This document shows, in pieces, positions 2,534 to 42,242 of a stretch of DNA of 44,578 bases (its first letter is position 1; each line of letters starts with the position of its first letter). The notes under the pieces are model-generated. The model ran no database searches, was not told where the DNA came from, and saw only the letters and a list, made by a program, of their open reading frames with translations. The translations under genes were made by a program, and so were the position numbers. The DNA comes from a phage, in assembly GCA_026776125.1 (NCBI GenBank), contig GCA_026776125.1_4343.1. One strand, written 5' to 3'.

Positions 2534-3049
2534 ATGAGTCAGGAATCAGTAGAAGCAGCCTATCGCCGTAAGCTGGCCTCAAACCCCGACGGCGAGATGG
2601 ACTACATTACGTTACAAATCAGCCACCCGTTGCTGTCGAAGACGTACTATCTTGTGCGCGGGCTACAGGAACTTACGGCAACACTGGAGACAGGCGAAAC
2701 TATCACATTCGAACCTACCCCGATGGAGGCGTCGGGGGCGGCTAACAACAGTGATATGGACCAGACGACAACATTCACTCTGCCGGATATTCTCAATCAA
2801 CTGGATGATGAGATGGATAAAATCCCGATGAGTAATACCGAGTTACCGAAGTTCATATTCCGCCGTTACGTCAGCACTGACCTGTCTTACCCGGCTGACG
2901 GCCCTGTCGTGTACGAGTTACAGGCCATTAATCAGGAGAAGGGCGAGTTCTCCGCGGATGTTGGTACACCTATGCTGAACCAGCGAAGCACTGGTATACT
3001 GATGACACCTAAAGAGATACCGTTATTACGCGGCCTGTTGACCACATGA
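2534..3049 (+). CDS. Putative minor tail protein
   Basis: 171-aa ORF tightly packed after 1133..2530; position in tail block. Confidence 0.3.
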   Translation: MSQESVEAAYRRKLASNPDGEMDYITLQISHPLLSKTYYLVRGLQELTATLETGETITFEPTPMEASGAANNSDMDQTTTFTLPDILNQLDDEMDKIPMSNTELPKFIFRRYVSTDLSYPADGPVVYELQAINQEKGEFSADVGTPMLNQRSTGILMTPKEIPLLRGLLTT

Positions 3050-3411
3050 ATATTAACGACTACACGGGCATACCTTACGACTTTCGCAAGCGCAATTGCT
3101 GGCATCACGTTCGCATTGTACGGGCCGATGCCGGGTTAGAAACCCCGGCGTTCGACGTTACAAGCCCAACGGCGATTAACGAAGCGTTCGACGAAGGCCA
3201 TCGTGACACGAAGGGGCTTACAAAAATTGATAAGCCTGAAAACTTCTGTGCGGTTCTTATGGGGTATCGCCGTGGCGGTCGTATCGTGTGGCACGCGGGA
3301 GTTTACTTCGACGGGATGGTGAGTCATTGCGAGCTTGCGTCCCGTCAGGTACGACTTGACCGGCTGGCGGACCTCAGAGACACGTACACGGAGATTGAAT
3401 TTTGGCGATAA
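3046..3411 (+). CDS. Putative minor tail protein
   Basis: 121-aa ORF with ATGA overlap to upstream gene; synteny only. Confidence 0.3.
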   Translation: MNINDYTGIPYDFRKRNCWHHVRIVRADAGLETPAFDVTSPTAINEAFDEGHRDTKGLTKIDKPENFCAVLMGYRRGGRIVWHAGVYFDGMVSHCELASRQVRLDRLADLRDTYTEIEFWR

Positions 3412-5969
3412 TCCTGCACTACACGCGAAACGCTGAAGGCGCTTTCGACCGTACAAAACACGTCGGGATGCCGATAGATTTTGTCGTTAACCATATTCCT
3501 GACGGCGTGCCTGTGCGCGTCTATCTCGGTGAGATTGGCGATGATACTGATGTTACAGACGACTTCAATGCGCTCAAAGACGAGGACGCCGTGTACCACA
3601 TTATCGAGGGTGCAGGCGGTGGTATCGGCGACGCTATCGGTAGTGTATTCAGTTTCATCCTTAAGCCAATTGCCAAATTGTTCGGGCTAGACACAGCAGC
3701 TAACGCTAATTATTCCGCTACCAACAATCAGGCTACGTCGCCTAACAACAGTCTTACTGACCGCTCGAACAAGCCACGTCCTTATGAACGTTCTTATGAC
3801 ATCTGCGGGACAGTGCAGACTATACCCAATGACCTGATGCAGACGTATAAGGTGTTTAACGCCACGGGGGCGCTTATTGAATATGCGTACTATGACGCCG
3901 GTCGAGGGTATCTGCATATTGAGGAAGACGGTGTAACTGAGGCAGATACCCGAATCAGCGAGATAACTGGCTCGTCGGCGGCGGTGTATTCCCCTTACAC
4001 TTCGCCGAATAACACCAGCACACCACAATTGCATATCGGCGGCCCTATAGACCAGAAATTGTACGTTACATTTAAAAACGCCGATGTCGATGGCGCTGTT
4101 CTTCCCGCCCCTAATGATATCGCTATAGACGTGCAGGACTACACTGTCCAGCGGCAGGGAACAACCGGCGTTGTAGTAGGCGATGACGCTGGTTTCGATG
4201 AGTTTTTGGCGGTCGGGGACCTGGCATACTTCGATAACGTATATGCAGATACAACCCCAGGGTCTTTGGGTAATGAGGTTAACCTGGACGGGAGGTACAC
4301 GGTTCTTTCTGTTAGTGAAACGACCCTTATTGTGGACGTCAGTACAAATCAATCAATATGGAACCAGCTAGGAACATCTGTATGGTTTATAGGTGAAGAG
4401 GGCAACCATCTTATAGGCCCGGCGGATACTTACGCGGCTTCCCTCTCTGGATGGGCGTACATCACCCGTGGAACCGTCGACCGTGTTGTAGCCAATGTGG
4501 CTGCCAGCAACGGCATGTACAAATACAACGGCGACTATAACCGCGCTTCAGTGACAGTCGAACTGCAATACCAGATGGTAGATGAATTGAAACAGCCTGT
4601 AGGTGACATATTTACCGTACGAGGAACCGTAACAGGCCGGAACACGGATTACACAGGGATTACTCTTTACGGAAGTTTACCAACTGCTTCCAGATTCCGC
4701 GCCCGTATGCGTCGTGTTTCGGACACCGATAAAGATTTTGAAGGTACTGTTAGCGACGAGGTTACTTTCACTAATCTATATGGGCAGTCGCTGGACACAA
4801 CCCCCCACTACGGCAACCGTACTACCGTACACTGCGCCCGTAAACAAACCCCACGTGCAGCCGAGGTGTCCGAACCGGAACTGCGCATGATTGCAACCGA
4901 GATGTGCTACAAATACTTAGGTAACGGCGTATTCGATACGGTAATGACACCGAACACTCAGGCCGTGCAGTCGCTAATCAGGCTGGCGCGCGACCCGGCG
5001 GTGGGTAATCTGGAGCTGACAACAGCAAACATGGACAAGTTACTTGCGGTGCAGGAAGAGATTGAGTCATATTTTGGCAGTGAATTAGCCGGGCAGTTCT
5101 GCTACACATTCGACGACTACGACACAACCATGCAAGACATCGTTCAGACCATCGCGGAAGCCGTGTTTTGTACGGCATACCGTAAAGGTGCTGATATTAT
5201 GCTGCGATTCGACCGTCCTGTTGCGGGGCCTGAGATGGTTTTCACCCACCGCAGCAAAACGACCGGTACGGAGAAATGGACGCGCACGTTCAACGATTCG
5301 ACAACCTACGATAGCCTGTCGTTCTCGTACATTGACCCGGATACAAACGTACAGGAGACGATTTATATCCCGGAAGAACTCGGCGCGAACACCGAGGAGT
5401 ACGAATCGAAGGGTGTACGTAACTATCAGCAAGCGTACTGGCTGGCGTGGCGTCGCTACCAGCGCAACACGTTAAGTAAAGTTGTCGTAGAGTTCGAAGC
5501 TACCGAAGAAGGCGCTCTCGCTACTCCCGGCGGCGTAATCAGTGTGGTTAAAGGCTCGCGTATCGCGCCGCAGGATGGTTATGTTGTTGCCGTCAATGGC
5601 CTTACGCTGACGCTGTCTCAGCCTGTTACGTTTACTCCTGGTGATGACCATTCCATCATTCTTAAGAAGCGCGACGGCTCTGTGCAGAGTATTTCTGTTA
5701 TCAAAGGAAGCCACGACCGCGAAGTGATTATGCTCTCCGCGCCGGAGGAGGCAATCTACACGGGGAATAGTGCGCTAAAAACTGAGTTTTCATTCGGCAA
5801 CGAAGCAAGGCATAATGCTCAGAAGATAGTTGTTTCTTCAATCGACCCCAGCGACGACCGCACGGTCAAGATTACGGGCTACAACTATGATGACGGATTC
5901 TATAAATACGACGGCGTCGCGCCATACGGCAGCGGTTTCTCCGACGGATTCAGCAATGGTTTTAATTAA
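3402..5969 (+). CDS. Putative tail tip / central tail fibre protein
   Basis: 855-aa ORF (TTG at 3402; an internal ATG about 60 nt downstream is an alternative start); large S/T/G-rich structural-looking protein. Confidence 0.35.
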   Translation: MAIILHYTRNAEGAFDRTKHVGMPIDFVVNHIPDGVPVRVYLGEIGDDTDVTDDFNALKDEDAVYHIIEGAGGGIGDAIGSVFSFILKPIAKLFGLDTAANANYSATNNQATSPNNSLTDRSNKPRPYERSYDICGTVQTIPNDLMQTYKVFNATGALIEYAYYDAGRGYLHIEEDGVTEADTRISEITGSSAAVYSPYTSPNNTSTPQLHIGGPIDQKLYVTFKNADVDGAVLPAPNDIAIDVQDYTVQRQGTTGVVVGDDAGFDEFLAVGDLAYFDNVYADTTPGSLGNEVNLDGRYTVLSVSETTLIVDVSTNQSIWNQLGTSVWFIGEEGNHLIGPADTYAASLSGWAYITRGTVDRVVANVAASNGMYKYNGDYNRASVTVELQYQMVDELKQPVGDIFTVRGTVTGRNTDYTGITLYGSLPTASRFRARMRRVSDTDKDFEGTVSDEVTFTNLYGQSLDTTPHYGNRTTVHCARKQTPRAAEVSEPELRMIATEMCYKYLGNGVFDTVMTPNTQAVQSLIRLARDPAVGNLELTTANMDKLLAVQEEIESYFGSELAGQFCYTFDDYDTTMQDIVQTIAEAVFCTAYRKGADIMLRFDRPVAGPEMVFTHRSKTTGTEKWTRTFNDSTTYDSLSFSYIDPDTNVQETIYIPEELGANTEEYESKGVRNYQQAYWLAWRRYQRNTLSKVVVEFEATEEGALATPGGVISVVKGSRIAPQDGYVVAVNGLTLTLSQPVTFTPGDDHSIILKKRDGSVQSISVIKGSHDREVIMLSAPEEAIYTGNSALKTEFSFGNEARHNAQKIVVSSIDPSDDRTVKITGYNYDDGFYKYDGVAPYGSGFSDGFSNGFN

Positions 5970-5981
5970 AGAGGACTCTAT

Positions 5982-7967
5982 ATGTCAAGCGGATGCGGTG
6001 ACGTTTTAAGCCTGGCGGATTTACAAACCGCCAAGAAACACCAAATTTTTGAAGCCGAGGTTATCACCGGTAAATCCGGCGGGGTTGCTGGTGGCGCCGA
6101 TATTGATTACGCGACCAACCCTGTTACCGGGCAGACCCAGAAGACGCTTCCTGCTGTGTTGCGTGATGCCGGTTTTTCTCCCGTATCGTGGGACTTTTCC
6201 ACCGGCGGTACGTTAACAGTTAATGACCGCGACAAAGTGGTGTATGACCCCGTAAGCAAGACGTGGTACTCATATGCGGGTACGTTGCCGGTTGTTGTTC
6301 CCGCGAGTTTTAATCCAGTCGGTAACGCTAACTGGAAGCCGCAGACAGACCCAAATTTGCGTAATGATTTGGCGTCAAGTACCGCCGGTTTAGGGGCTTC
6401 ACTGGTGTCTTTTTCCAACGGTAACACCGTTGAAACATTATCTGACGCGGAAGGTGCCAAGAACATAGGCAGTGGCGAAAGGAGTTTGCTTGCACGTAAC
6501 AATGATATTAAGCATTCTGGCGACTTTTCTACCCTTCAAGCCGCGGTAGATGCGTCGTTAACTAAAAACGACTTAATTGTTTCTCCGGGTGAGTATACAG
6601 AAGCAATCACTCTGGGTAGTAAGCAGATAAAAGGTGTAGGTGGTGCTGCAATATTAAAACCATCGGCAAACTATGCAAATACTGTACAGGTTAATTTATC
6701 CACCCCGCACTGGCAGTTTCGACACAGCGGTGGTTTTGCCGTAGATGGTACAGGTACAACTGGGGCCGTAGGTATTAGTTTTGACCCGTCAGACCAATAT
6801 TCCGGACGTCATAATTTTAGTGATTTATACATCCACAACATCAACAAGGCCATTCAGAAGCCTTCCGGGAACATCGGCAATACGTGGAGAAGTATTGGGG
6901 TATCTACGTGTGATTGGGGGTATTACGCGATTAGTGGCTCGAAGATGCATTGCGGGGCCGATACCCTCTACAATATCCACTTCGACGGCATCTCCACCTA
7001 TGCCGTCTACCTAAACGGTACTGTCGATAACGGTGGGATAGGCGGATGGTGGCTTAAAGACTCCATTATTGAGGCTTCCGGAGGCGGCGGGATATACTTA
7101 AAAAGCAAATCGGGTGACTGTCCTCCATCTCCATGCGGGGTATCCAATGTATGGATGGAAGCTATTGCAACATCATCGGCTGTTCAGGTAGATGGCGTGG
7201 CGCAAAAACCGCGAGTTCTCAAGTTGGTAGACACCGCGATATTCTTTGCTGAGTATTCTTATCTCAACAACATCGAGCTATCCAACTCCAACTTAGTAAC
7301 TTATGGTTGCCGTTTTGACAACGCTGATGGTAATCAGGATATTGTAGTGGATGCACAAAGCACCATTGTAGCCCACGATGTGTATTTAAACGGCAGTTCT
7401 GGAAAGGACGTTATTGTAGAGTCTGTCGCGTCGCAATCCGCAACGGTAGCCACTACAAACTTGTCTCTACGAGGAAATTTAACAAGGGGACGAGTGTTTA
7501 ATACGCCGACGGGGAATAAGTTAAAAGCTATCACATTTGACTCAGGTAGCCATAGTTTTTCTGGTAGCGGTACCGTTAACGGTTCGACTGTATCTGACGG
7601 ACTTCACGCCGCTACATGTACCGAATTTTCATTCCCTGGGTCCGGTTTATATGAAATGGTAGCGTCAAGAACGACACTTACATCCGGTAGATGGTACGTG
7701 TGGGGTGTCAACTCTCGCCTCCAATCAGGAACAGCAGATGTGAGTATAACGTTAGGTATTACTATGGGTAGCGTTTATACTAAGTCTGGTGAGTGGATTA
7801 GCACATTTGGGGTGGGTAAAGCTTCCGCTAACGGTATTGTAGGTCTGTACGTCTCTACTGGGGGAGGTTCAGGTGCTGTTATCAGATTTAGTGACTTCTT
7901 CATCGCTGAGTTTACGACGCAGGCTCAGGCTTTAGCTTTCGCTAACTCCCGAATGTCGTTGGCTTAA
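5982..7967 (+). CDS. Putative tail fibre / tailspike (receptor-binding) protein
   Basis: 661-aa ORF, last of tail block, Gly/Ser/Thr/Asn-rich repeats suggestive of beta-helix or fibre; followed by terminator. Confidence 0.45.
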   Translation: MSSGCGDVLSLADLQTAKKHQIFEAEVITGKSGGVAGGADIDYATNPVTGQTQKTLPAVLRDAGFSPVSWDFSTGGTLTVNDRDKVVYDPVSKTWYSYAGTLPVVVPASFNPVGNANWKPQTDPNLRNDLASSTAGLGASLVSFSNGNTVETLSDAEGAKNIGSGERSLLARNNDIKHSGDFSTLQAAVDASLTKNDLIVSPGEYTEAITLGSKQIKGVGGAAILKPSANYANTVQVNLSTPHWQFRHSGGFAVDGTGTTGAVGISFDPSDQYSGRHNFSDLYIHNINKAIQKPSGNIGNTWRSIGVSTCDWGYYAISGSKMHCGADTLYNIHFDGISTYAVYLNGTVDNGGIGGWWLKDSIIEASGGGGIYLKSKSGDCPPSPCGVSNVWMEAIATSSAVQVDGVAQKPRVLKLVDTAIFFAEYSYLNNIELSNSNLVTYGCRFDNADGNQDIVVDAQSTIVAHDVYLNGSSGKDVIVESVASQSATVATTNLSLRGNLTRGRVFNTPTGNKLKAITFDSGSHSFSGSGTVNGSTVSDGLHAATCTEFSFPGSGLYEMVASRTTLTSGRWYVWGVNSRLQSGTADVSITLGITMGSVYTKSGEWISTFGVGKASANGIVGLYVSTGGGSGAVIRFSDFFIAEFTTQAQALAFANSRMSLA

Positions 7968-14555: not shown

Positions 14556-14803
14556 CCCTTCCAGCCAGTTATTTTCTCAACTATCTCGATATATTTGTTA
14601 GGCCATTTCATGCTGTTTATGAATCGAAGCGCCTGTGTCTTCCACGATTTATCACTCAGGATGGCTTCTATGTCGCGAGTTTGCGCTATGCATACCGTAA
14701 TACACATTAAGATAAATGTTGGTAGCGTTAGGGGTAGCATAAGAACCCAGAAAACAATACACGCCACAAAACCGCCAATTACTCTGAACATTTTACGAAT
14801 CAT
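14552..14803 (-). CDS. Small membrane protein
   Basis: Hydrophobic segments (FVACIVFWVLMLPLTLPTFILMCITVCIA); ATG at 14803 forms ATGA overlap with upstream gene. Confidence 0.4.
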   Translation of the reverse strand: MIRKMFRVIGGFVACIVFWVLMLPLTLPTFILMCITVCIAQTRDIEAILSDKSWKTQALRFINSMKWPNKYIEIVEKITGWKG

Positions 14804-16041
14804 TCTAAATCCTCCTCTGTTACCTGATTCCACTCAGGACGCTTGTCGTCTGCCGTTGCAACACATGGCGCGCCGGGCTTACGAGTAATAAAGTCTTTCA
14901 GTTCTTCTTCCGGTATGACTTTAACAGCTTCGGTAGGTGACATGAGCACTTCTTTAGTCAGCTTGTCGCCGTAGAGTTCTGTTACTTTCTCCGCGTCTTT
15001 CCATGCACGATTACCCGGGCGGCCTTCAACCAACTTGTAACCAGGAACTTTCTTACCTGAATGCAACGCGGCCGCCATAGCTTTCTCAACCTTGTCGATG
15101 TGCTGGCGCAACAGCGGCAACTTCTCATACTCAGCTACGAGTTGCTCCGGCGTCAGTTCCAGCACAAAGTCGTCTTCCAGTTCTTCCGCCAGTACAGAAT
15201 TAACCGTCTTTGTACGCGCAGCGCATTGTTCAGAGAACCGGCACCACTGACAACCATCTACCGATGGCTTGAAGTCCGACGCTTTCAGGTTCTTCTTGCC
15301 ACGGAAATACGCATCAAGCGCTAACAGCGCGCGTTTCTGTGCGAACTTAGCGAACAGTTCCAGTCCTTCAACCGAGATGTCCCACTCTGTCGCGCCCCCA
15401 GCGTAAGGCTGGAAGATGACCAGACGAACGGTTGTTATGTTATAACGTCTCTTGAGTCGACGATAAACACCGAGAGCGTAAAGCATAAGCTGCTTGTTTT
15501 CTTTCGCTTCGACGCGATGCCGCCCGGTTTTCAGGTCGCCGATAATGAGCATGTGCTCGTCGGTGTTTGCCAGTTCCTGGACAGCAACGAGGTCAGCGGT
15601 TCCGAACGTCTCAACGCCTTCATACCCCGGATGCAATACCTCAGTAAGATTGACACGCATTTCCAGCTTGGCGTAAGTCGCTACGTCTATAATCGCTTTG
15701 CAGTAGTCGGTGTACTTGCGCACCTGCTCAATCATGTCCGCCGTAATCAGTACCGCGCCTTTCATCGGGCTGATTAGCGCCTTAATCTGACCTTTGCCTT
15801 CATCCAGTACGTAAGCGCCGACTTCACGCTCCAACGGCAACGCAGTGCCGCGTATATAGGCGTTGAGATGGACCTCAGCTATGGTGTGCATGGCGGTCCC
15901 CGTAACGGCAGCTTTACCTGACGTGTTAGGAATATCTTTTTCACAGGCCAGTGATGCACTGCACGTCAGCCACTTCTTAGCACCTGACGGCGACAATAAG
16001 GCGTGCACATCATTATTGCCACCGCGTTCTTTTAGAATCAT
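14800..16041 (-). CDS. PD-(D/E)xK exonuclease, Cas4/RecB-like with Cys cluster
   Basis: IGDLKTG...QLMLYA nuclease-type motifs; cysteines at N-terminus (LTCSASLAC) and C-terminus (CQWCRFSEQC) suggest an Fe-S cluster; ATG at 16041 preferred over GTG at 16056. Confidence 0.6.
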   Translation of the reverse strand: MILKERGGNNDVHALLSPSGAKKWLTCSASLACEKDIPNTSGKAAVTGTAMHTIAEVHLNAYIRGTALPLEREVGAYVLDEGKGQIKALISPMKGAVLITADMIEQVRKYTDYCKAIIDVATYAKLEMRVNLTEVLHPGYEGVETFGTADLVAVQELANTDEHMLIIGDLKTGRHRVEAKENKQLMLYALGVYRRLKRRYNITTVRLVIFQPYAGGATEWDISVEGLELFAKFAQKRALLALDAYFRGKKNLKASDFKPSVDGCQWCRFSEQCAARTKTVNSVLAEELEDDFVLELTPEQLVAEYEKLPLLRQHIDKVEKAMAAALHSGKKVPGYKLVEGRPGNRAWKDAEKVTELYGDKLTKEVLMSPTEAVKVIPEEELKDFITRKPGAPCVATADDKRPEWNQVTEEDLE

Positions 16042-16310
16042 GCTCTGTTCTCCCACTGGTCAATTAAATGTCGTGTCTTATGGTCGCAGTGCATGGCCCA
16101 CCCATACATCGACTCGAAGACATAAAAGTCAGGCTTGGCGAAAGTTGTGCGCTTAATCTGTGACACGTGACGGCCTATATCTTTAGGCCGTGGTACTTTT
16201 CCTAAGTACGCCATCTCTTCCATCTGGTGCGCACCGGACGGAGCACGCAATAGCCATAGCGCCTCTGTGTTATCCCGCCTGTCGACGGCTCGGTAGAGTT
16301 GGTAAATCAT
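16038..16310 (-). CDS. Hypothetical protein (90 aa)
   Basis: ORF in operon with ATGA coupling. Confidence 0.4.
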   Translation of the reverse strand: MIYQLYRAVDRRDNTEALWLLRAPSGAHQMEEMAYLGKVPRPKDIGRHVSQIKRTTFAKPDFYVFESMYGWAMHCDHKTRHLIDQWENRA

Positions 16311-37274: not shown

Positions 37275-37687
37275 TGGGCTACTTTGAGGACTTAACAAAA
37301 GCGTTTGATGTGCCGCTGGTAGCCTTCGGAACCGCCAACGGCATCAAGGTCGCGCTTGAAAACATCGACGCGCCGACGTCAACCGATACGCCGTATCTGG
37401 CGAGTTACATGCTACTAGCGGATACCGAGCAGGCTGATTTGTTCTTTACGGAACAACGCTCTGGTATTTATCAGGTCGACATTAACTACGCATCGGCGAA
37501 AGGTAGCGCGGAAATCAATAAAATGGCAGACTTACTTAACACGGCGTTTAAAGCAGGTAAGTCATTTTCACGTAACGACATCTGCGCCGAGGTTCAATCG
37601 GTTAGCCTGGGGCCGCTGATTGTAGAAAACGTATGGGCCAAACGGCCATTGTCAATTAACTTTATAGCATTCACCAAGAGGCTGTGA
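37271..37687 (+). CDS. Putative tail terminator protein
   Basis: Synteny, immediately before major tail protein. Confidence 0.3.
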   Translation: MMGYFEDLTKAFDVPLVAFGTANGIKVALENIDAPTSTDTPYLASYMLLADTEQADLFFTEQRSGIYQVDINYASAKGSAEINKMADLLNTAFKAGKSFSRNDICAEVQSVSLGPLIVENVWAKRPLSINFIAFTKRL

Positions 37688-37689
37688 AT

Positions 37690-38856
37690 ATGGCTACAAC
37701 TCCTTTTAAGGGCGCGAATACCGCGCAATTCTATGTGGCGGAAGTGACCCCGGGCGTAACACCGGCTAACCCGGTATGGTCGCCGTTGCGCAACACGGGC
37801 GGCGTTCCTGCCATTACCCGCGACACGCTGACCTCCAACGAACTCGACGGCAGCCGTGAAACTACATCCATCCGCACCGGTAACAAACAGGTTAGCGGTG
37901 AATACGCAATTGAGCTTAGCTCTAAAAGCCAGGATGACTGGTTGGCAGGTGCTTTAGGCTCTACGTGGCAATCCGGTGTTTCTCTGTCAGGACTATCGAT
38001 CACCGTCGCACCCGCGGGCAAGACGTTCACACGCGCTACCGGCAGTTTTATCACTGACGGAGTTGGGGTAGGCGACCTGATTGCGTTTACCGACTTAACA
38101 GGCGATAACGCAAAACCATTTATTGTTACCGCAGTAACGGCTACGGTTGTTACTGGTGCGGGCATCCAACACACCCTGACCACCGAGACAAAAACTAGTA
38201 AGGCTAAAACTGGCGACACGTTGGAAACCGGTAACACGTGTAAGACGTTCTCTATCCTTACCTGGTACAAAGGCCAGTGCGGCGGTACTGACGCGTACAC
38301 GTTAACCAAAGGCGTGGAAGTTTCTGGTTTTACCATCGAACAGGCTGTTAACGCGATGGTAACTGGCAGCTTCCCATTCATCGGTCGCAGTCAGGAGATT
38401 CTCACTACGCCGCCGACCGGTTCCAACTTCTCATCTGTTACTTTTGGTGATGAGCCGTTCTCTTCGGTTGACGTTTCCGTGTTCGACGGCTCTACGCCGT
38501 TGCGTTGCGACAGTCTGACTATCACCAACGATAACAGCGCGTCCGCGCAGTTTGAACTTGGTAACACTAACGTAGCGTTTGTGGAGCGTAGCCGTGCAGC
38601 TAACACCTTCTCCATCTCCGGTAAGCTGTATGACATGGCGATGATTCAGAAGTTTATCAACGAGCAGCAGGTAGAGATTAACTCTATTCTGGCAGGGGTA
38701 AACGGGGCTATGTCTTTCAGTTTGAAACGTGCAGAGCTTACGGCGGTTACACCTGAGATTGGTGGGCCTGAGTCAATCACTCAGTCCATTGAAGGCCAGG
38801 CTACCGGCAATCAGTACCAGTCGTCTATCGTAATTCAACGTATCACCTACGCATAA
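37690..38856 (+). CDS. Putative major tail protein
   Basis: 389-aa ORF preceding the chaperone and tape measure genes; RBS AAGAGG; followed by strong terminator. Confidence 0.5.
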   Translation: MATTPFKGANTAQFYVAEVTPGVTPANPVWSPLRNTGGVPAITRDTLTSNELDGSRETTSIRTGNKQVSGEYAIELSSKSQDDWLAGALGSTWQSGVSLSGLSITVAPAGKTFTRATGSFITDGVGVGDLIAFTDLTGDNAKPFIVTAVTATVVTGAGIQHTLTTETKTSKAKTGDTLETGNTCKTFSILTWYKGQCGGTDAYTLTKGVEVSGFTIEQAVNAMVTGSFPFIGRSQEILTTPPTGSNFSSVTFGDEPFSSVDVSVFDGSTPLRCDSLTITNDNSASAQFELGNTNVAFVERSRAANTFSISGKLYDMAMIQKFINEQQVEINSILAGVNGAMSFSLKRAELTAVTPEIGGPESITQSIEGQATGNQYQSSIVIQRITYA

Positions 38857-38860
38857 AACT

Positions 38861-38886
38861 AAGGCCCCTTTCGGGGCCTTTTTCTT
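38861..38886. terminator. Bidirectional hairpin terminator (aaggcccc-tttc-ggggcctt + TTTTCTT)
   Basis: 8-bp stem between convergent major tail gene and minus-strand cassette. Confidence 0.65.
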
Positions 38887-39439
38887 ACAAACCTAATTTT
38901 AAAGCAATGTCTATAACGTTCGATTTAACGTCACCCGGTATGATGTAGGTGTCGTAATCTTTTACACCACTAACATCGTACAGATAGCCACGGCTATCGC
39001 AGATGAACGTATAGCCGTCACGATGGAGGCGGACGATTCGCACGTCATGCCCCGCGGCGACGATAGGGGCAACTTCACTGGCGAATCCACCGTCGGACAC
39101 TACAAAAACTTCGTCGCCGTCAGGCAAGTTTTCAGCAAGATACTTACCGAAATAATCATCGCCGAATACCGGTTTAATGAATTGCTCAGAAATGGCAATC
39201 ATTAACCGGCGGCGGGACAACCCATTAAGAAAACCCTCGGGTTTTTCTTTCCGCGCCCGGTCGTCGTAGCCGTCGAGAAATTCGTGGTAAGCATCCTGGC
39301 CTAACGCTGCCAAAGCAATATTGAACATTGGGTTCTTGAAACTGGTAGTTCCTTTCGCAAAGCCCATTTCTACCAGCGCCATAGCAAGCGTGTCTTTCCC
39401 GCAACCCGCAGGGCCATTAAGAATAATTACCTTAGCCAT
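38885..39439 (-). CDS. P-loop nucleotide kinase, dNMP-kinase-like
   Basis: Walker A GPAGCGKDT at N-terminus; overall resemblance to phage deoxynucleoside monophosphate kinases (by eye, unverified). Confidence 0.55.
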   Translation of the reverse strand: MAKVIILNGPAGCGKDTLAMALVEMGFAKGTTSFKNPMFNIALAALGQDAYHEFLDGYDDRARKEKPEGFLNGLSRRRLMIAISEQFIKPVFGDDYFGKYLAENLPDGDEVFVVSDGGFASEVAPIVAAGHDVRIVRLHRDGYTFICDSRGYLYDVSGVKDYDTYIIPGDVKSNVIDIALKLGL

Positions 39440-39927
39440 TATTTATTGCTCCCGTGTGGTTTTAAGTGTGTAGAGTTCCCGTTACAGTCGTATTCGGTAA
39501 CTGCGTGTGCGGTTATGCCGAGGTCACGGAAATGCTTTATTACCGCTGGGGAGTCGTCGAACGCACACAAGATTCTTTCCAGTCCGAAAGCACGCAACAC
39601 CTCTTCTTTAATTACGATGTCTTTTCTGTTGTCGTGTTTGCTGCGCATGATTAGCGTGTCAAACCTAACGTTATTCTCTCGTAACCATTCGCGAGTCTCC
39701 TCCTCAGCGTCATCACTTCGCCCGGTAAGGATAATTATAGTAAGTCCGGAATGCCACAGTACGCTACACAAATGGATATTGTCGTATATCGGAGCGTCAT
39801 CTTTGCAGGCCATGTTAAATGGCTTCCACGCCCACGTTTCTCCGTAGTTATCTTTTGGTAACAGGTGTAAGCGATGGGTACCGTCGGCCAATGTCCCGTC
39901 TAAATCGAAAATTACAATATCTTTCAT
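39439..39927 (-). CDS. HAD-superfamily phosphatase, resembling the 3'-phosphatase domain of polynucleotide kinase-phosphatase
   Basis: HAD motif I IFDLDGTLA at N-terminus; further motifs TGR and RKDIVIKEEVL...FDDSP. Confidence 0.55.
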   Translation of the reverse strand: MKDIVIFDLDGTLADGTHRLHLLPKDNYGETWAWKPFNMACKDDAPIYDNIHLCSVLWHSGLTIIILTGRSDDAEEETREWLRENNVRFDTLIMRSKHDNRKDIVIKEEVLRAFGLERILCAFDDSPAVIKHFRDLGITAHAVTEYDCNGNSTHLKPHGSNK

Positions 39928-41054
39928 CCCAGCATCTCCGGTGAAATAGTTAAACGTGCGACCTCGCCATATTCGGCGCTATAAGTAATTACATTTGCAC
40001 TGCGGCCCGACATCCATCCGCCGTGAGAGGCGTAGGCGTCTTTAGCCGCTAAGGTGCGGTGTTGCTCAACAATCATGTTACGGCTTTCTACAATCTTCTG
40101 GTGGTGCAGATGGCCTACGTGGGCGTAGCTGTAAACACTCTCGCCGAACGCTTTACGGAACTTGGCAATCATAACCGGTTCGATAGCGTCGAATCGTGCT
40201 TTATGCCCGTGATGGAAGAACAGCGTCGTTTTGCCGTGTTGCACCATCTTGTAAACATCCGGCGACGTATCAACAATCACTCGGCTGTCGTTTGAGTATA
40301 AAACCGTGAACATTTCGGCAAGCCATACGGAGCCAACAGGGTCGTGGTTACCTTGAACGATTAAAAGTTTTACTGTGTGATGCTTAACCAGCGCCATATC
40401 AACAACACGGCGGACCATACGAATCATGTAACGTACCAGTTTCTGATAGCGAGTATCCGCATCTAATACATGGCGCGACTCGGGGGTAACGGCATCAAGA
40501 CTATCGAAGTGTGCGAAGTCCCCAAGCAGGTTAATAACTCCTGTTCCTGCATCCGGTGCTTTCTGAAACGCCGCGTCGAACCACCGAGAGAACAGGTCTT
40601 CTGCAATCTTCATGTCCCAGTCGTCGCCGCTCTCATCGGCCCATGCCAGCATACCGAGATGGAAATCAGATACAGTGTAAAGATTGAGTAGCTTGTCGTC
40701 ACGTTTGGCGCGCGCCGCTTTAACAGGCGCAACGGGCGTAATCTCTGACTTCATGCCCTCTATTACGGCTTTCATCAATTCAACCTGACGTTCGGCGTCG
40801 GTATCAGTCTTAACCCATTGCAACTTAGTGTTGCCGAACTCGTCCACAAGTGACGACGTTCCTTTAATCTTGTAGCCGTCTGGCACAAGGTGGCTAACGT
40901 CGCGCCCGTGGCCCACGCCTTTCTTAGCCAGCTTCGCTTTACGGATACGAATTACGCGGTCTGAGATGCCGTATTTACGGGCGATATCTACATTCTTCAT
41001 ACCGGCGTTCAATTCTTCCTGCAACTGTTCGTCGGTTATTTTCTTCCGGGCCAT
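39924..41054 (-). CDS. Calcineurin-like metallophosphoesterase with N-terminal HTH domain
   Basis: HTH-like N-terminus (VDIARKYGISDRVIRIRK); phosphoesterase motifs SDFHLG, GDFAHFD, GNHD, HHGH, GHLHH (Mre11/SbcD-like pattern). Confidence 0.55.
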   Translation of the reverse strand: MARKKITDEQLQEELNAGMKNVDIARKYGISDRVIRIRKAKLAKKGVGHGRDVSHLVPDGYKIKGTSSLVDEFGNTKLQWVKTDTDAERQVELMKAVIEGMKSEITPVAPVKAARAKRDDKLLNLYTVSDFHLGMLAWADESGDDWDMKIAEDLFSRWFDAAFQKAPDAGTGVINLLGDFAHFDSLDAVTPESRHVLDADTRYQKLVRYMIRMVRRVVDMALVKHHTVKLLIVQGNHDPVGSVWLAEMFTVLYSNDSRVIVDTSPDVYKMVQHGKTTLFFHHGHKARFDAIEPVMIAKFRKAFGESVYSYAHVGHLHHQKIVESRNMIVEQHRTLAAKDAYASHGGWMSGRSANVITYSAEYGEVARLTISPEMLG

Positions 41055-41091
41055 GTTTATTCCTCGTGCTTAGGATTTGTCCTATACTAGC

Positions 41092-41283
41092 TCACTTCTC
41101 TTTGACATTCGAGTTGCAAGCCCAGATTAAAATAAATACCCACGGCAGCAGAACCCATCCAAGAAACAGATTAGCCATGAATATCGCTAATTTCGCTTTA
41201 TGGTCGCGCATATGCGCCACGAGAAATGGAGTAAAATAAACTAAAACGATAATGATTAAGAAGAACATAGTAATACCCGTCAT
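41092..41283 (-). CDS. Small membrane protein (63 aa)
   Basis: ATG at 41283 with RBS AGGAG; two hydrophobic helices (ITMFFLIIIVLVYFTPFLV and FLGWVLLPWVFILIWA); ORF-track entry 41092..41421 starts too far upstream. Confidence 0.45.
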   Translation of the reverse strand: MTGITMFFLIIIVLVYFTPFLVAHMRDHKAKLAIFMANLFLGWVLLPWVFILIWACNSNVKEK

Positions 41284-41324
41284 GGTGTAGCTCCTGTTTG
41301 GGATAACATCGTTGGTGTAAGTGA

Positions 41325-41353
41325 ATAGTACACTATTATATTGGGGTGTGCAA
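41325..41353 (-). promoter_or_regulatory. Promoter-like element, class II (TTGCAC-N17-TACTAT on minus strand)
   Basis: Near-identical to 32092 copy; about 40 nt upstream of 41283 start. Confidence 0.5.
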
Positions 41354-41460
41354 GTAATGTGATAGAATAATTTTGCGCCTAGTGTCGCACACGAAAAGCG
41401 GGTGGTTCCCGTCTGGCGCATTAACCTTAACCCGTAACCTCTTAACCAAAGGATTAAAGA

Positions 41461-41877
41461 ATGAAACTTTCTGATTTTTATTACGAAGCTGAGGCAGAAA
41501 AAGGCGCCCGTATGCCGATCCCACTGAAAGACGGCACCGATTCAGGGGAGTGGCTGAACGTTGTTTCACCGGAGGCAGACGTTGCGGTTAAAGCCATGCG
41601 TGCATTTACCCTGGCGTACCGCGCGTCGTTAGGTAAACTGAAGCCGCTTCGTGATAAATGCGAGGAACTGAAAGATTTCTCGGAATATAACATTAAGATG
41701 GAAGACGCCGCGACGGACCTTAACCGCCAGTTAGCACTTGAACTGGTTAACGGTTGGAGTCTCGACGATGAATTTAATAAAGAGAACCTGAATACTCTTT
41801 TTTCACAATATAAACGCCTCGCTGAACACGTTGTTGTTTTCCACAACGAACAGCTTCACCAATTGCAGGAAAAGTAG
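41461..41877 (+). CDS. Tail assembly chaperone (G-like)
   Basis: 138-aa ORF immediately before a -1 frame ORF and the tape measure gene. Confidence 0.5.
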   Translation: MKLSDFYYEAEAEKGARMPIPLKDGTDSGEWLNVVSPEADVAVKAMRAFTLAYRASLGKLKPLRDKCEELKDFSEYNIKMEDAATDLNRQLALELVNGWSLDDEFNKENLNTLFSQYKRLAEHVVVFHNEQLHQLQEK

Positions 41878-42242
41878 ACGCGTTGCTCCAGTTTGCCCGT
41901 TGGAACTTCATAGCCCGCCACAAACGGCGGGAGTTTGACAGTATTGCCGACGGGCATAAAGCCGCGCTAATTGCTATGGGGGTTATGCAAGATGCGCCGG
42001 AAGCAACGCAGGACACCGGGCCGGAATGCCCCCCTGAACTATTAACCACCTTCGAGAAGTACCGGGAAATCAAATTTACCCGCCGAGTGGATGACGATGG
42101 CATCAAGATGTACCCGCGCGAACAGTTAAGATGGTCGGATTTAGTGGCATACAGCACCGTTTCAGGCCAGAATATAGGCATGTTTGAATCTGACATCATC
42201 ATGAGCTTAGACGCTATTTTCGAGGGTAGAAACGATGGCTGA
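41826..42242 (+). CDS. Tail assembly chaperone frameshift extension (T-like), expressed via putative -1 frameshift
   Basis: -1 frame open from 41826; overlaps end of 41461..41877; ends with ATGA-type overlap at tape measure start. Confidence 0.4.
   Translation, partial: TRCCFPQRTASPIAGKVDALLQFARWNFIARHKRREFDSIADGHKAALIAMGVMQDAPEATQDTGPECPPELLTTFEKYREIKFTRRVDDDGIKMYPREQLRWSDLVAYSTVSGQNIGMFESDIIMSLDAIFEGRNDG

Follow-up and report, generated by a model that had tools for sequence, protein, structure and literature searches.

A minus-strand cargo island encoding predicted nucleotide- and DNA-metabolism enzymes and an Imm-family protein in the tail module of a Kagunavirus coliphage

The phage kinases T4 gp1, T5 dNMP kinase and T7 gp1.7 convert dNMPs to dNDPs and thereby feed phage DNA synthesis, and since E. 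coli already has dNMP kinases of its own, any benefit of such a phage enzyme is expected to be quantitative. HAD phosphatases of the T4 Pnkp 3'-phosphatase-domain family are best known for nucleic-acid end healing, and nucleases of the Mre11 type leave products with 5'-phosphate and 3'-hydroxyl ends. Here we analyze a locus at which proteins resembling these three systems in family or predicted fold are encoded together, behind a gene of the T4 Imm superinfection-immunity family. The window, that is, the whole stretch of DNA analyzed (44,578 nucleotides), is the complete genome of a coliphage of the genus Kagunavirus (Guernseyvirinae) with 99% identity to GenBank MZ234010.

The four minus-strand ORFs of the cassette lie between two plus-strand genes that anchor the locus: on the left the major tail (tube) protein gene (37684-38856), with homologues in 693 phage records by tblastn, and on the right the tail assembly chaperone gene (41461-41877). 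A sequence-only reading of this DNA had described an independent opposite-strand unit of four genes inside the tail module, and that arrangement was recovered with every element in place or displaced by a few bases. The GC content of the cassette (0.48-0.51) shows no anomaly against the genome-wide value of about 0.50, and neither Rfam nor tRNA scans returned a hit anywhere in the window.

The four genes and their transcription unit

The first gene of the operon (41092-41283, minus strand) encodes a 63-residue membrane protein with two hydrophobic segments. Its mechanically called ORF spans 41092-41421; translation plausibly begins at position 41283, where an ATG has CAGGAG just upstream. The protein scores above the gathering threshold of Pfam Imm_superinfect PF14373 (46.6 bits against 27.9; E 3e-12) and matches phrog_1039 'immunity to superinfection' (E 6e-26), which bears out the earlier description of a small membrane protein and makes it specific. 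Small size and the paired hydrophobic segments add to its likeness to the T4 Imm family; it departs from T4 Imm in its length of 63 residues, in coming from a virulent siphovirus and in the position of its gene inside the tail module, where its predicted role would be the exclusion of superinfecting phages. In Kagunavirus RNA-seq data the Imm gene was grouped with methylases and DNA polymerase, in a temporal class unlike that of the tail and capsid genes (PMC12645636). For the three enzyme genes, the supplementary data of the K1B4 transcriptome study list no per-gene classes.

Downstream lies the gene for an HTH-fused binuclear metallophosphoesterase (MPE; 39924-41054, minus strand, 376 aa), composed of a three-helix HTH (residues 1-45), a linker of beta-hairpin and helix (61-102) and an MPE core (119-376). 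A first family search gave only relatives at least 93% identical, and the alignment was built from 68 homologues gathered through a 50%-representative search. Across these, D130, H132, G178, D179, N236, H237, H282 and H317 are invariant, and G235, D238, G314 and H315 are nearly so (at least 90% of the 68). All five metal-binding motifs of the calcineurin-like superfamily (DxH, GD, GNH(D/E), H and GHxH) are thus represented, and the beta-sandwich MPE fold is predicted as well. Because the Pfam models Metallophos and Metallophos_2 score below their gathering thresholds (21.8 bits against 27 and 17.4 against 21.5), placement in the superfamily rests on these motifs and the fold. Searches of the MPE and kinase sequences against PDB sequences returned only HTH or P-loop matches and profile searches did little better, so fold comparison was needed for both proteins.

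Nuclease-type structures rank first among the neighbours of the MPE, the nearest predicted folds being PolD-DP1, Mre11 and SbcD. With Mre11/SbcD, archaeal PolD DP1 and the Pseudomonas putida MPE nuclease (6NVO) it shares the binuclear fold and all metal-binding motifs at identities of just 12-18%; it differs from all of them in its family-specific N-terminal HTH and beta-hairpin domain and in a conserved insertion that follows motif II (H182, D184, T190, L197, D198, R202). Unlike Mre11/SbcD, it has no capping domain, the protein ending at the MPE core, and the product annotation of a 92%-identical relative names no Rad50/SbcC-type gene; on both counts, the MPE resembles the Mre11/SbcD nucleases in modelled fold and is not a member of that family. 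The HTH and the calcineurin-like MPE named by the sequence-only reading therefore stand, with structural neighbours of the nuclease type. The family of HTH-fused MPEs is very large: grouping at 50% identity gives 4,540 clusters, and members appear in about 2,000 phage records. The window MPE would bind DNA and degrade or resect it. Elsewhere in the genome, the replication-module 'exonuclease' (14800-16056, minus strand), which one paper presents as an SbcD paralogue, is a PD-(D/E)XK DUF2800 protein.

The third gene (39439-39927, minus strand) encodes a 162-residue HAD phosphatase of the T4 Pnkp 3'-phosphatase-domain family. The protein exceeds the gathering score of Pfam HAD_PNKP PF25109 (73.1 bits against 27.6; E 3e-20), matches phrog_415 (E 3e-64) and residues 162-300 of T4 PseT (BLASTP, E 4e-10), and finds Pnkp1 (4xrp) and T4 Pnk (1ltq/5uj0) among PDB sequences. 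Its residues D8, D10, T12, R19, R70, D103 and D124 align with D165, D167, T169, R176, R213, D254 and D277 of T4 Pnkp, the Arg and Asp residues of which are reportedly essential, according to mutagenesis by the Shuman laboratory. The resemblance to the Pnk 3'-phosphatase domain noted from sequence is thereby upheld at the level of family and catalytic residues, the DxDGT motif of the PseT phosphatase domain (1LTQ) being kept together with the equivalents of R176, R213, D254 and D277. The window protein differs from T4 PseT in standing alone, in carrying a 15-residue insertion and in having its partner kinase encoded by a separate downstream gene, from another P-loop kinase clade, in place of an N-terminal domain; a further difference is that the window genome has no detectable Rnl-type ligase partner. 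Its predicted activity would be to strip nucleotides or DNA ends of their 3'-phosphates.

The last gene (38885-39439, minus strand) encodes a 184-residue P-loop kinase with the Walker A sequence GPAGCGKDT. Structure comparison places T4 gp1 first, followed by other small-molecule kinases; similarity to the T4 Pnk kinase is limited to the P-loop, so that the protein has the gp1 fold and P-loop signature and lacks the features of a Pnk-type 5'-OH polynucleotide kinase domain. The sequence-only reading of a dNMP-kinase-like protein agrees with this result, with action on dNMPs suggested by the fold. The unusual G-K-D-T Walker A is shared with T4 gp1 (1DEK), the profile alignment reaches beyond the P-loop, and both proteins fall in PHROG family 139; the T4 gp1 gene is likewise embedded among virion genes (57A-1-3-2). 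The two differ in that identity is 21%, that the window protein is 57 residues shorter and shows no direct BLAST similarity to T4 gp1, and that genetic coupling to a HAD phosphatase is seen for the window kinase and not for T4 gp1. A homologue of the kinase adjoins dUTPase in a Chaseviridae phage and others lie among replication genes, which is suggestive. Together, profile-HMM and structure searches confirmed the family assignments of all four proteins.

The MPE and HAD genes overlap by 4 nt and the HAD and kinase genes by 1 nt, which suggests translational coupling of each pair. Downstream of the kinase gene, the bidirectional terminator proposed from sequence at 38861-38886 corresponds to an intrinsic-terminator hairpin at 38861-38880 found for both strands, with an 8-bp GC-rich stem and a 4-nt loop. 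Its folding energy is -15.4 kcal/mol on the plus strand and -19.9 kcal/mol on the minus strand, stable against shuffled sequences (z about -4); the T-run is good on the plus strand and weaker on the minus strand (UUAGUUUUAU). The hairpin is predicted to end both the plus-strand transcript of the major tail protein and the minus-strand transcript of the cassette.

Upstream of the Imm gene, the promoter-like element TTGCAC-N17-TACTAT (41325-41353, minus strand) was found where the sequence-only reading had placed it, with TTGCAC at 41353-41348, a 17-nt spacer and TACTAT at 41330-41325. Its match to the sigma-70 consensus is moderate, and a promoter scan favoured the overlapping ATCACA-N17-TATAAT at 41363-41335. 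Promoter-like sites are at least as frequent in shuffled sequences (five found in the region, 7.0 expected), so the element draws no statistical support from this count alone. Its position is kept in Salmonella jerseyviruses, there as TTGCAT-N17-TATTAT. From the moderate match and the conserved position, with no enrichment over shuffles, a minus-strand promoter at 41325-41353 is a plausible candidate that rests on a weak consensus match.

A variable locus and a recurrent enzyme set

Within this phage group the cassette is a known cargo island, and its four genes already carry annotations in dozens of Kagunavirus records in GenBank. Imm and MPE genes at this locus are common to Salmonella jerseyviruses, and the enzyme trio recurs in other phage families; the sequence-only reading, which had considered such a set atypical within a structural operon, thus did not point to an oddity of this genome.

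As that reading had allowed, the cassette is variably present among relatives. Salmonella jerseyviruses carry Imm-MPE-HNH-76aa-Ant at the same locus, Bas72 carries phrog_14165-MPE-76aa, phiEap-2 has phrog_14165 alone and Smarc3 a single lipoprotein-like ORF; in Vibrio phage 1.233.A nothing lies between the major tail and chaperone genes. Judged by gene content, the region between these genes is a variable cargo (recombination) hot spot of the Guernseyvirinae.

Outside this subfamily, the MPE-HAD-kinase trio keeps its gene order in Klebsiella Webervirus (Drexlerviridae) and in the Autographiviridae Erwinia phiEa100 and Aeromonas Tola, where it follows exonuclease and endonuclease VII genes and precedes a DNA ligase gene; Arno160 has an MPE-kinase arrangement. 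The Webervirus and phiEa100/Tola trios share gene order and orientation with the window; identity to the window proteins is 39-48% for their MPEs and 36-43% for the three kinases that were aligned. They differ in being encoded on the main coding strand, within a DNA-metabolism or pre-lysis region, and in having no Imm gene.

Gene neighbourhoods were counted in a sample of 80 IMG/VR loci encoding a homologue of the kinase, plus a dozen annotated records. The strict trio is found at 23 of the 80 loci, seven of which have a kinase only 45-49% identical to that of the window. HAD and kinase genes are adjacent at 7 further loci, and at 31 of the 80 the HAD gene lies 0.9-2.6 kb upstream of the kinase on the same strand. 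Overall, HAD and kinase genes occur without the MPE at 36 loci and the kinase alone at 19. The HAD-kinase pair travels together in many phages, with the HAD gene always upstream, and the HTH-MPE occurs alone in T1/Rtp phages, Dhillonvirus, jerseyviruses and others.

Weighing the functional readings

We read the cassette as an independently transcribed cargo island that does not serve tail assembly and that combines an accessory DNA/nucleotide-metabolism module with Imm exclusion, and we give this reading a probability of about 0.5. Judged from homology and context, nucleotide and DNA metabolism is the most likely function of the cassette, and nucleotide salvage appears to fit best among the three roles the sequence-only reading had offered. 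The kinase would convert 5'-dNMPs to dNDPs for phage DNA synthesis, as do T4 gp1, T5 dNMP kinase and T7 gp1.7, and the MPE, HAD and kinase would act with the same-strand DNA-replication genes. Literature searches on the four proteins returned genome descriptions and announcements only, with no biochemical or genetic work found. Against salvage counts the end-healing reputation of the HAD's Pnkp family, and it is hard to see what a 3'-phosphatase would act on in a simple line of salvage, since Mre11-type products carry 5'-P and 3'-OH. The three enzymes need not form one pathway, because the MPE occurs alone and so, at 19 of the 80 loci, does the kinase.

End healing, another role raised from sequence, would make the trio a split Pnkp-like set that mends nuclease-cut phage DNA or host tRNA: the HAD would clear a 3'-phosphate or 2',3'-cyclic phosphate, the P-loop protein would phosphorylate a 5'-OH, the MPE would trim blocked ends and a ligase would seal. 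We consider this unlikely. It draws on the Pnkp phosphatase family membership of the HAD with six T4 Pnkp residues aligned, on the nearest MPE folds being DNA-end-processing nucleases, and on the HAD gene's systematic partnership with a gene for a P-loop kinase, a combination also seen in Pnkp; yet the kinase is nearest T4 gp1 and then small-molecule kinases, its similarity to T4 Pnk being confined to the P-loop. A gene for an ATP-dependent DNA ligase immediately follows the trio, or the kinase alone, in Autographiviridae (12 of 80 loci), but this neighbourhood of kinase and ligase is also seen where HAD and MPE are missing and may reflect only the gene order of the lineage, so it is weak evidence for a repair pathway. 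In addition, a tblastn search of the window found nothing significant when queried with a partial RNA ligase of the Rnl1 type and with two ATP-dependent DNA ligases from phages, and no ligase is annotated in the 92%-identical relative. The gp1-type kinase and the lack of a detectable ligase weaken the end-healing proposal.

It is similarly doubtful that the four genes are independent morons at a permissive insertion site, with Imm serving exclusion, the HTH-MPE a role of its own and the HAD-kinase pair another, grouped for transcriptional convenience. The modular content of the locus across relatives, the solitary MPE of many phage groups and the loci with HAD-kinase without MPE (36/80) or kinase alone (19/80) agree with such independence, but the MPE-HAD-kinase order with overlapping frames recurs in three unrelated phage families.

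Less probable still is a self-contained, horizontally mobile DNA-end repair system in which the gp1-type kinase has been recruited to polynucleotide ends; here the MPE may resect, the HAD may remove the 3'-phosphate and a phage or host ligase may seal. If true, the trio would shield phage genomes against host nucleases whose cuts end in 3'-P and 5'-OH, and would represent PNKP-like repair that combines a different kinase clade with a previously uncharacterised family of HTH-tethered nucleases numbering more than 4,500 sequence clusters.

An anti-defence set, in which the MPE and perhaps the HAD destroy abortive-infection second messengers or counter nucleotide depletion while the kinase restores pools, is very improbable: a variable hot spot adjoining an exclusion gene is typical for conflict genes, but none of the four proteins matched a PADLOC-DB profile at E <= 0.01, nuclease-type structures lead the neighbours of an MPE that carries a DNA-binding HTH, the MPE family lies among DNA-metabolism genes in other phages and the literature searched reports no such role, so that the second-messenger degradation suggested from sequence gains no positive support. 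NCBIfam profiles gave nothing above cut-offs for the cassette proteins.

Meaning for Kagunavirus and other phages

The locus between the major tail protein and chaperone genes is a lineage-typical cargo site, and annotators of Kagunavirus genomes have no reason to mark it as anomalous. The HTH-fused MPE belongs to a very large family without assigned activity and offers a hypothesis for the bench, and the pair of HAD phosphatase and gp1-like kinase occurs widely among T1-like phages, Kagunavirus and some T7-like phages. Deciding among dNTP supply, end repair and anti-defence would shed light on an accessory function common among therapeutic coliphages and phages of Klebsiella.

Layout of the opposite-strand cassette

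At 44,578 bp, the window comprises a complete, circularly permuted genome of a siphovirus, in which no tRNA genes and no Rfam families at gathering score are detected. Between the plus-strand genes for the major tail protein (37684-38856) and a tail assembly chaperone (41461-41877) lie four minus-strand ORFs, in agreement with the sequence-only reading of an opposite-strand unit inside the tail module. These encode a P-loop kinase (38885-39439), a HAD phosphatase (39439-39927), an HTH-tethered metallophosphoesterase (HTH-MPE; 39924-41054) and a 63-aa Imm small membrane protein (41092-41283), for which the ATG at 41283, preceded by CAGGAG, is most likely the real start. The GC content of the cassette is that of the remainder of the genome. 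An overlap of 4 nt joins MPE to HAD and one of 1 nt joins HAD to kinase, so the three genes look translationally coupled. The bidirectional terminator proposed at the left end was recovered by a terminator scan as a hairpin at 38861-38880 on both strands, with folding energies of -15.4 kcal/mol (plus) and -19.9 kcal/mol (minus) and z ~ -4 against shuffles. The promoter-like element proposed at the right end, TTGCAC-N17-TACTAT (41353-41325, minus strand), is present and its position is kept in Salmonella jerseyviruses as TTGCAT-N17-TATTAT, but promoter-like sites near the cassette are no more frequent than in shuffled sequence, and the scan tool prefers an overlapping site, ATCACA-N17-TATAAT (41363-41335, minus strand). 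We consider the proposed element a plausible, unproven promoter.

The intergenic block GCGCCAGACGGGAACCACCCGCTTTTCGTGTGCGAC (41370-41420), strongly conserved between Kagunavirus and Salmonella jerseyviruses, lies upstream of both the cassette promoter and the plus-strand chaperone gene and may regulate one or other of the two divergent units. Its minus strand shows a short hairpin with a T-run after it, and the scan places a weak terminator-like site at 41391-41374; a 37-aa hypothetical ORF is annotated there in a relative. The two plus-strand ORFs that follow the cassette upstream of the tape measure gene (41461-41877 and 41883-42242) resemble the tail assembly chaperone pair usually seen there; the second lacks a convincing start codon and fits a programmed-frameshift product, and the homologous pair is annotated as a joined frameshift protein in Serratia phage Smarc3.

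The four proteins and their existing annotation

Profile matches and alignments confirmed the four protein identifications made from sequence alone. The Imm-family protein matches Pfam Imm_superinfect (46.6 bits; gathering score 27.9) and phrog_1039. The nuclease-like HTH-MPE (376 aa) is covered from end to end by a phrog_704 match (E 6e-162), and its hits to the Pfam MPE models fall short of the gathering scores. Its metal-binding motifs are intact: in an alignment of 68 homologues (32-49% identity), D130, H132, G178, D179, N236, H237, H282 and H317 are invariant and G235, D238, G314 and H315 at least 90% conserved. The Pnkp-type HAD phosphatase (HAD_PNKP, 73 bits; gathering score 27.6) aligns with residues 162-300 of PseT, the T4 polynucleotide kinase/phosphatase (Pnkp; E 4e-10), its D8, D10, R19, R70, D103 and D124 standing opposite T4 D165, D167, R176, R213, D254 and D277, residues essential to that enzyme. 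The kinase is of the nucleotide-kinase type represented by T4 gp1, not of the polynucleotide-kinase type. T4 gene 1 (NC_000866, locus positions 2650-3375), a dNMP kinase gene amid virion genes in the order 57A, 1, 3, 2 and 4, shows that a nucleotide kinase can be encoded within a structural cluster.

A 3.4-kb query around the cassette shares 99.1% identity with Escherichia phage vB_EcoS-22664BS2 (MZ234010) and 88-92% with many further Kagunavirus (Guernseyvirinae) records. Public records label the genes as superinfection immunity protein (Imm), DNA repair exonuclease or metallophosphoesterase (MPE), polynucleotide kinase or acid phosphatase (HAD) and deoxynucleoside monophosphate kinase. Because the cassette is annotated in such records, one of them 99% identical to the window, it is already known as annotation. 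The feature itself is genuine, and its proteins fall within, or close to, well-known families. Searches of the accessible literature turned up no experiments on the MPE-HAD-kinase trio. Elsewhere in the window, the replication-module "exonuclease" (14800-16056, minus strand) proved to be a PD-(D/E)XK / DUF2800 protein (E 2e-68) instead of SbcD; one published description of a related phage, Golestan, terms that phage's ORF31 an SbcD subunit.

Variable cargo and gene linkage

The cassette forms its own transcription unit on the opposite strand, at a variable hot spot. This insertion site, flanked by the genes for the major tail protein and the chaperone, holds opposite-strand cargo that differs between relatives. 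Salmonella jerseyviruses carry Imm, HTH-MPE, an HNH endonuclease, a 76-aa protein and an Ant-like protein; E. coli phage Bas72 a phrog_14165 protein, HTH-MPE and the same 76-aa protein; Enterobacter phiEap-2 the phrog_14165 protein only; Smarc3 a single unannotated ORF; and Vibrio phage 1.233.A, with a tail protein 34% identical, nothing. Four separate, non-intersected tblastn searches gave rough counts of ~115 (tail protein), 53 (kinase), 57 (HAD) and 286 (MPE) records at ≥ 80% identity. These counts suggest that only some of the Kagunavirus-like phages have HAD-kinase, with Imm and MPE shared more widely.

The Smarc3 ORF (vB_SmaS-Smarc3, MT980832; locus positions 5683-6066, minus strand), with an N-terminus resembling a signal peptide or lipoprotein signal (MKIAIAAVLLAVSFSAAAGKSC) and no match in a PHROG search, may encode a Cor/Llp-like exclusion lipoprotein. 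The gene for the 76-aa protein follows the MPE gene in jerseyviruses (PV057337, locus positions 5612-5842) and Bas72 (locus positions 5702-5932). Its product corresponds to no more than the C-terminal ~70 residues of several PHROG families of ~240 aa, one of them labelled ATPase, and represents a free-standing domain or what is left of a longer gene. Jerseyviruses PV052272 (Salmonella phage SE131_1NRH) and PV057337 have identical locus organisation and MPEs 55% and 82% identical to that of the window, which suggests that recombination within the island has replaced alleles. The taxonomy line of SE131_1NRH (Rountreeviridae; Minhovirus) seems erroneous, given that the phage is a siphovirus of 42.5 kb and carries this tail module.

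The HTH-MPE family comprises 4,540 clusters at 50% identity (E ≤ 1e-3), with matches in 2,040 phage records. It occurs alone in Rtp (annotated as a homologue of T1 gp16), Dhillonvirus and a Casjensviridae phage, usually at the border between DNA-metabolism and lysis genes. The trio is found again, its order unchanged, in Klebsiella Webervirus, directly upstream of the holin gene, and in Erwinia phiEa100 and Aeromonas Tola, downstream of exonuclease and endonuclease VII genes and directly followed by an ATP-dependent DNA ligase gene; Arno160 carries MPE-kinase, and in a Chaseviridae phage a kinase homologue adjoins dUTPase. Among 80 IMG/VR loci with a kinase homologue, scored by local tblastn, the strict trio is found in 23 (16 Kagunavirus-like, seven only 45-49% identical), adjacent HAD-kinase with MPE slightly further upstream in two, adjacent HAD-kinase without MPE in five, HAD 0.9-2.6 kb upstream on the same strand with small ORFs between (as in phage tunus) in 31, and the kinase alone in 19. 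Where linked to the kinase gene, the HAD gene is always upstream. From these counts, HAD-kinase linkage is strong and the link to MPE looser. In 12 of the 80 loci the kinase gene has a ligase gene after it; some of these loci lack HAD or MPE, so this adjacency may be mere lineage gene order.

Function of the cassette

We assign a probability of roughly one half to the reading that the cassette combines accessory DNA/nucleotide-metabolism enzymes with an excluding Imm protein. Imm would exclude competing phages, and the other three products would be co-expressed with the same-strand replication genes, the MPE degrading or resecting DNA, the HAD clearing 3'-phosphates and the kinase converting dNMPs to dNDPs, as T4 gp1, T5 dNMP kinase and T7 gp1.7 do. 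Kagunavirus RNA-seq (PMC12645636) places the Imm gene in a temporal class distinct from that of capsid and tail genes and shared with methylases and DNA polymerase, an assignment that covers Imm and not MPE, HAD or kinase. Pnkp-style end healing, which the sequence-only reading had raised, would account for the HAD family and its obligatory kinase partner, but the kinase belongs to another clade and tblastn with phage DNA and RNA ligases found no ligase in the genome, leaving this an unlikely explanation. It is similarly doubtful that the four genes are independent morons at a common permissive site, an idea in keeping with the modular locus but at odds with a gene order conserved in three phage families. 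That the cassette degrades second messengers of defence systems found no support and is very improbable.

Relative to prior annotation, the analysis makes three modest additions: cargo of at least five content types marks the tail locus as a hot spot, HAD and kinase form a tightly linked pair that recurs with MPE as a module, and the window kinase is gp1-like rather than Pnk-like.
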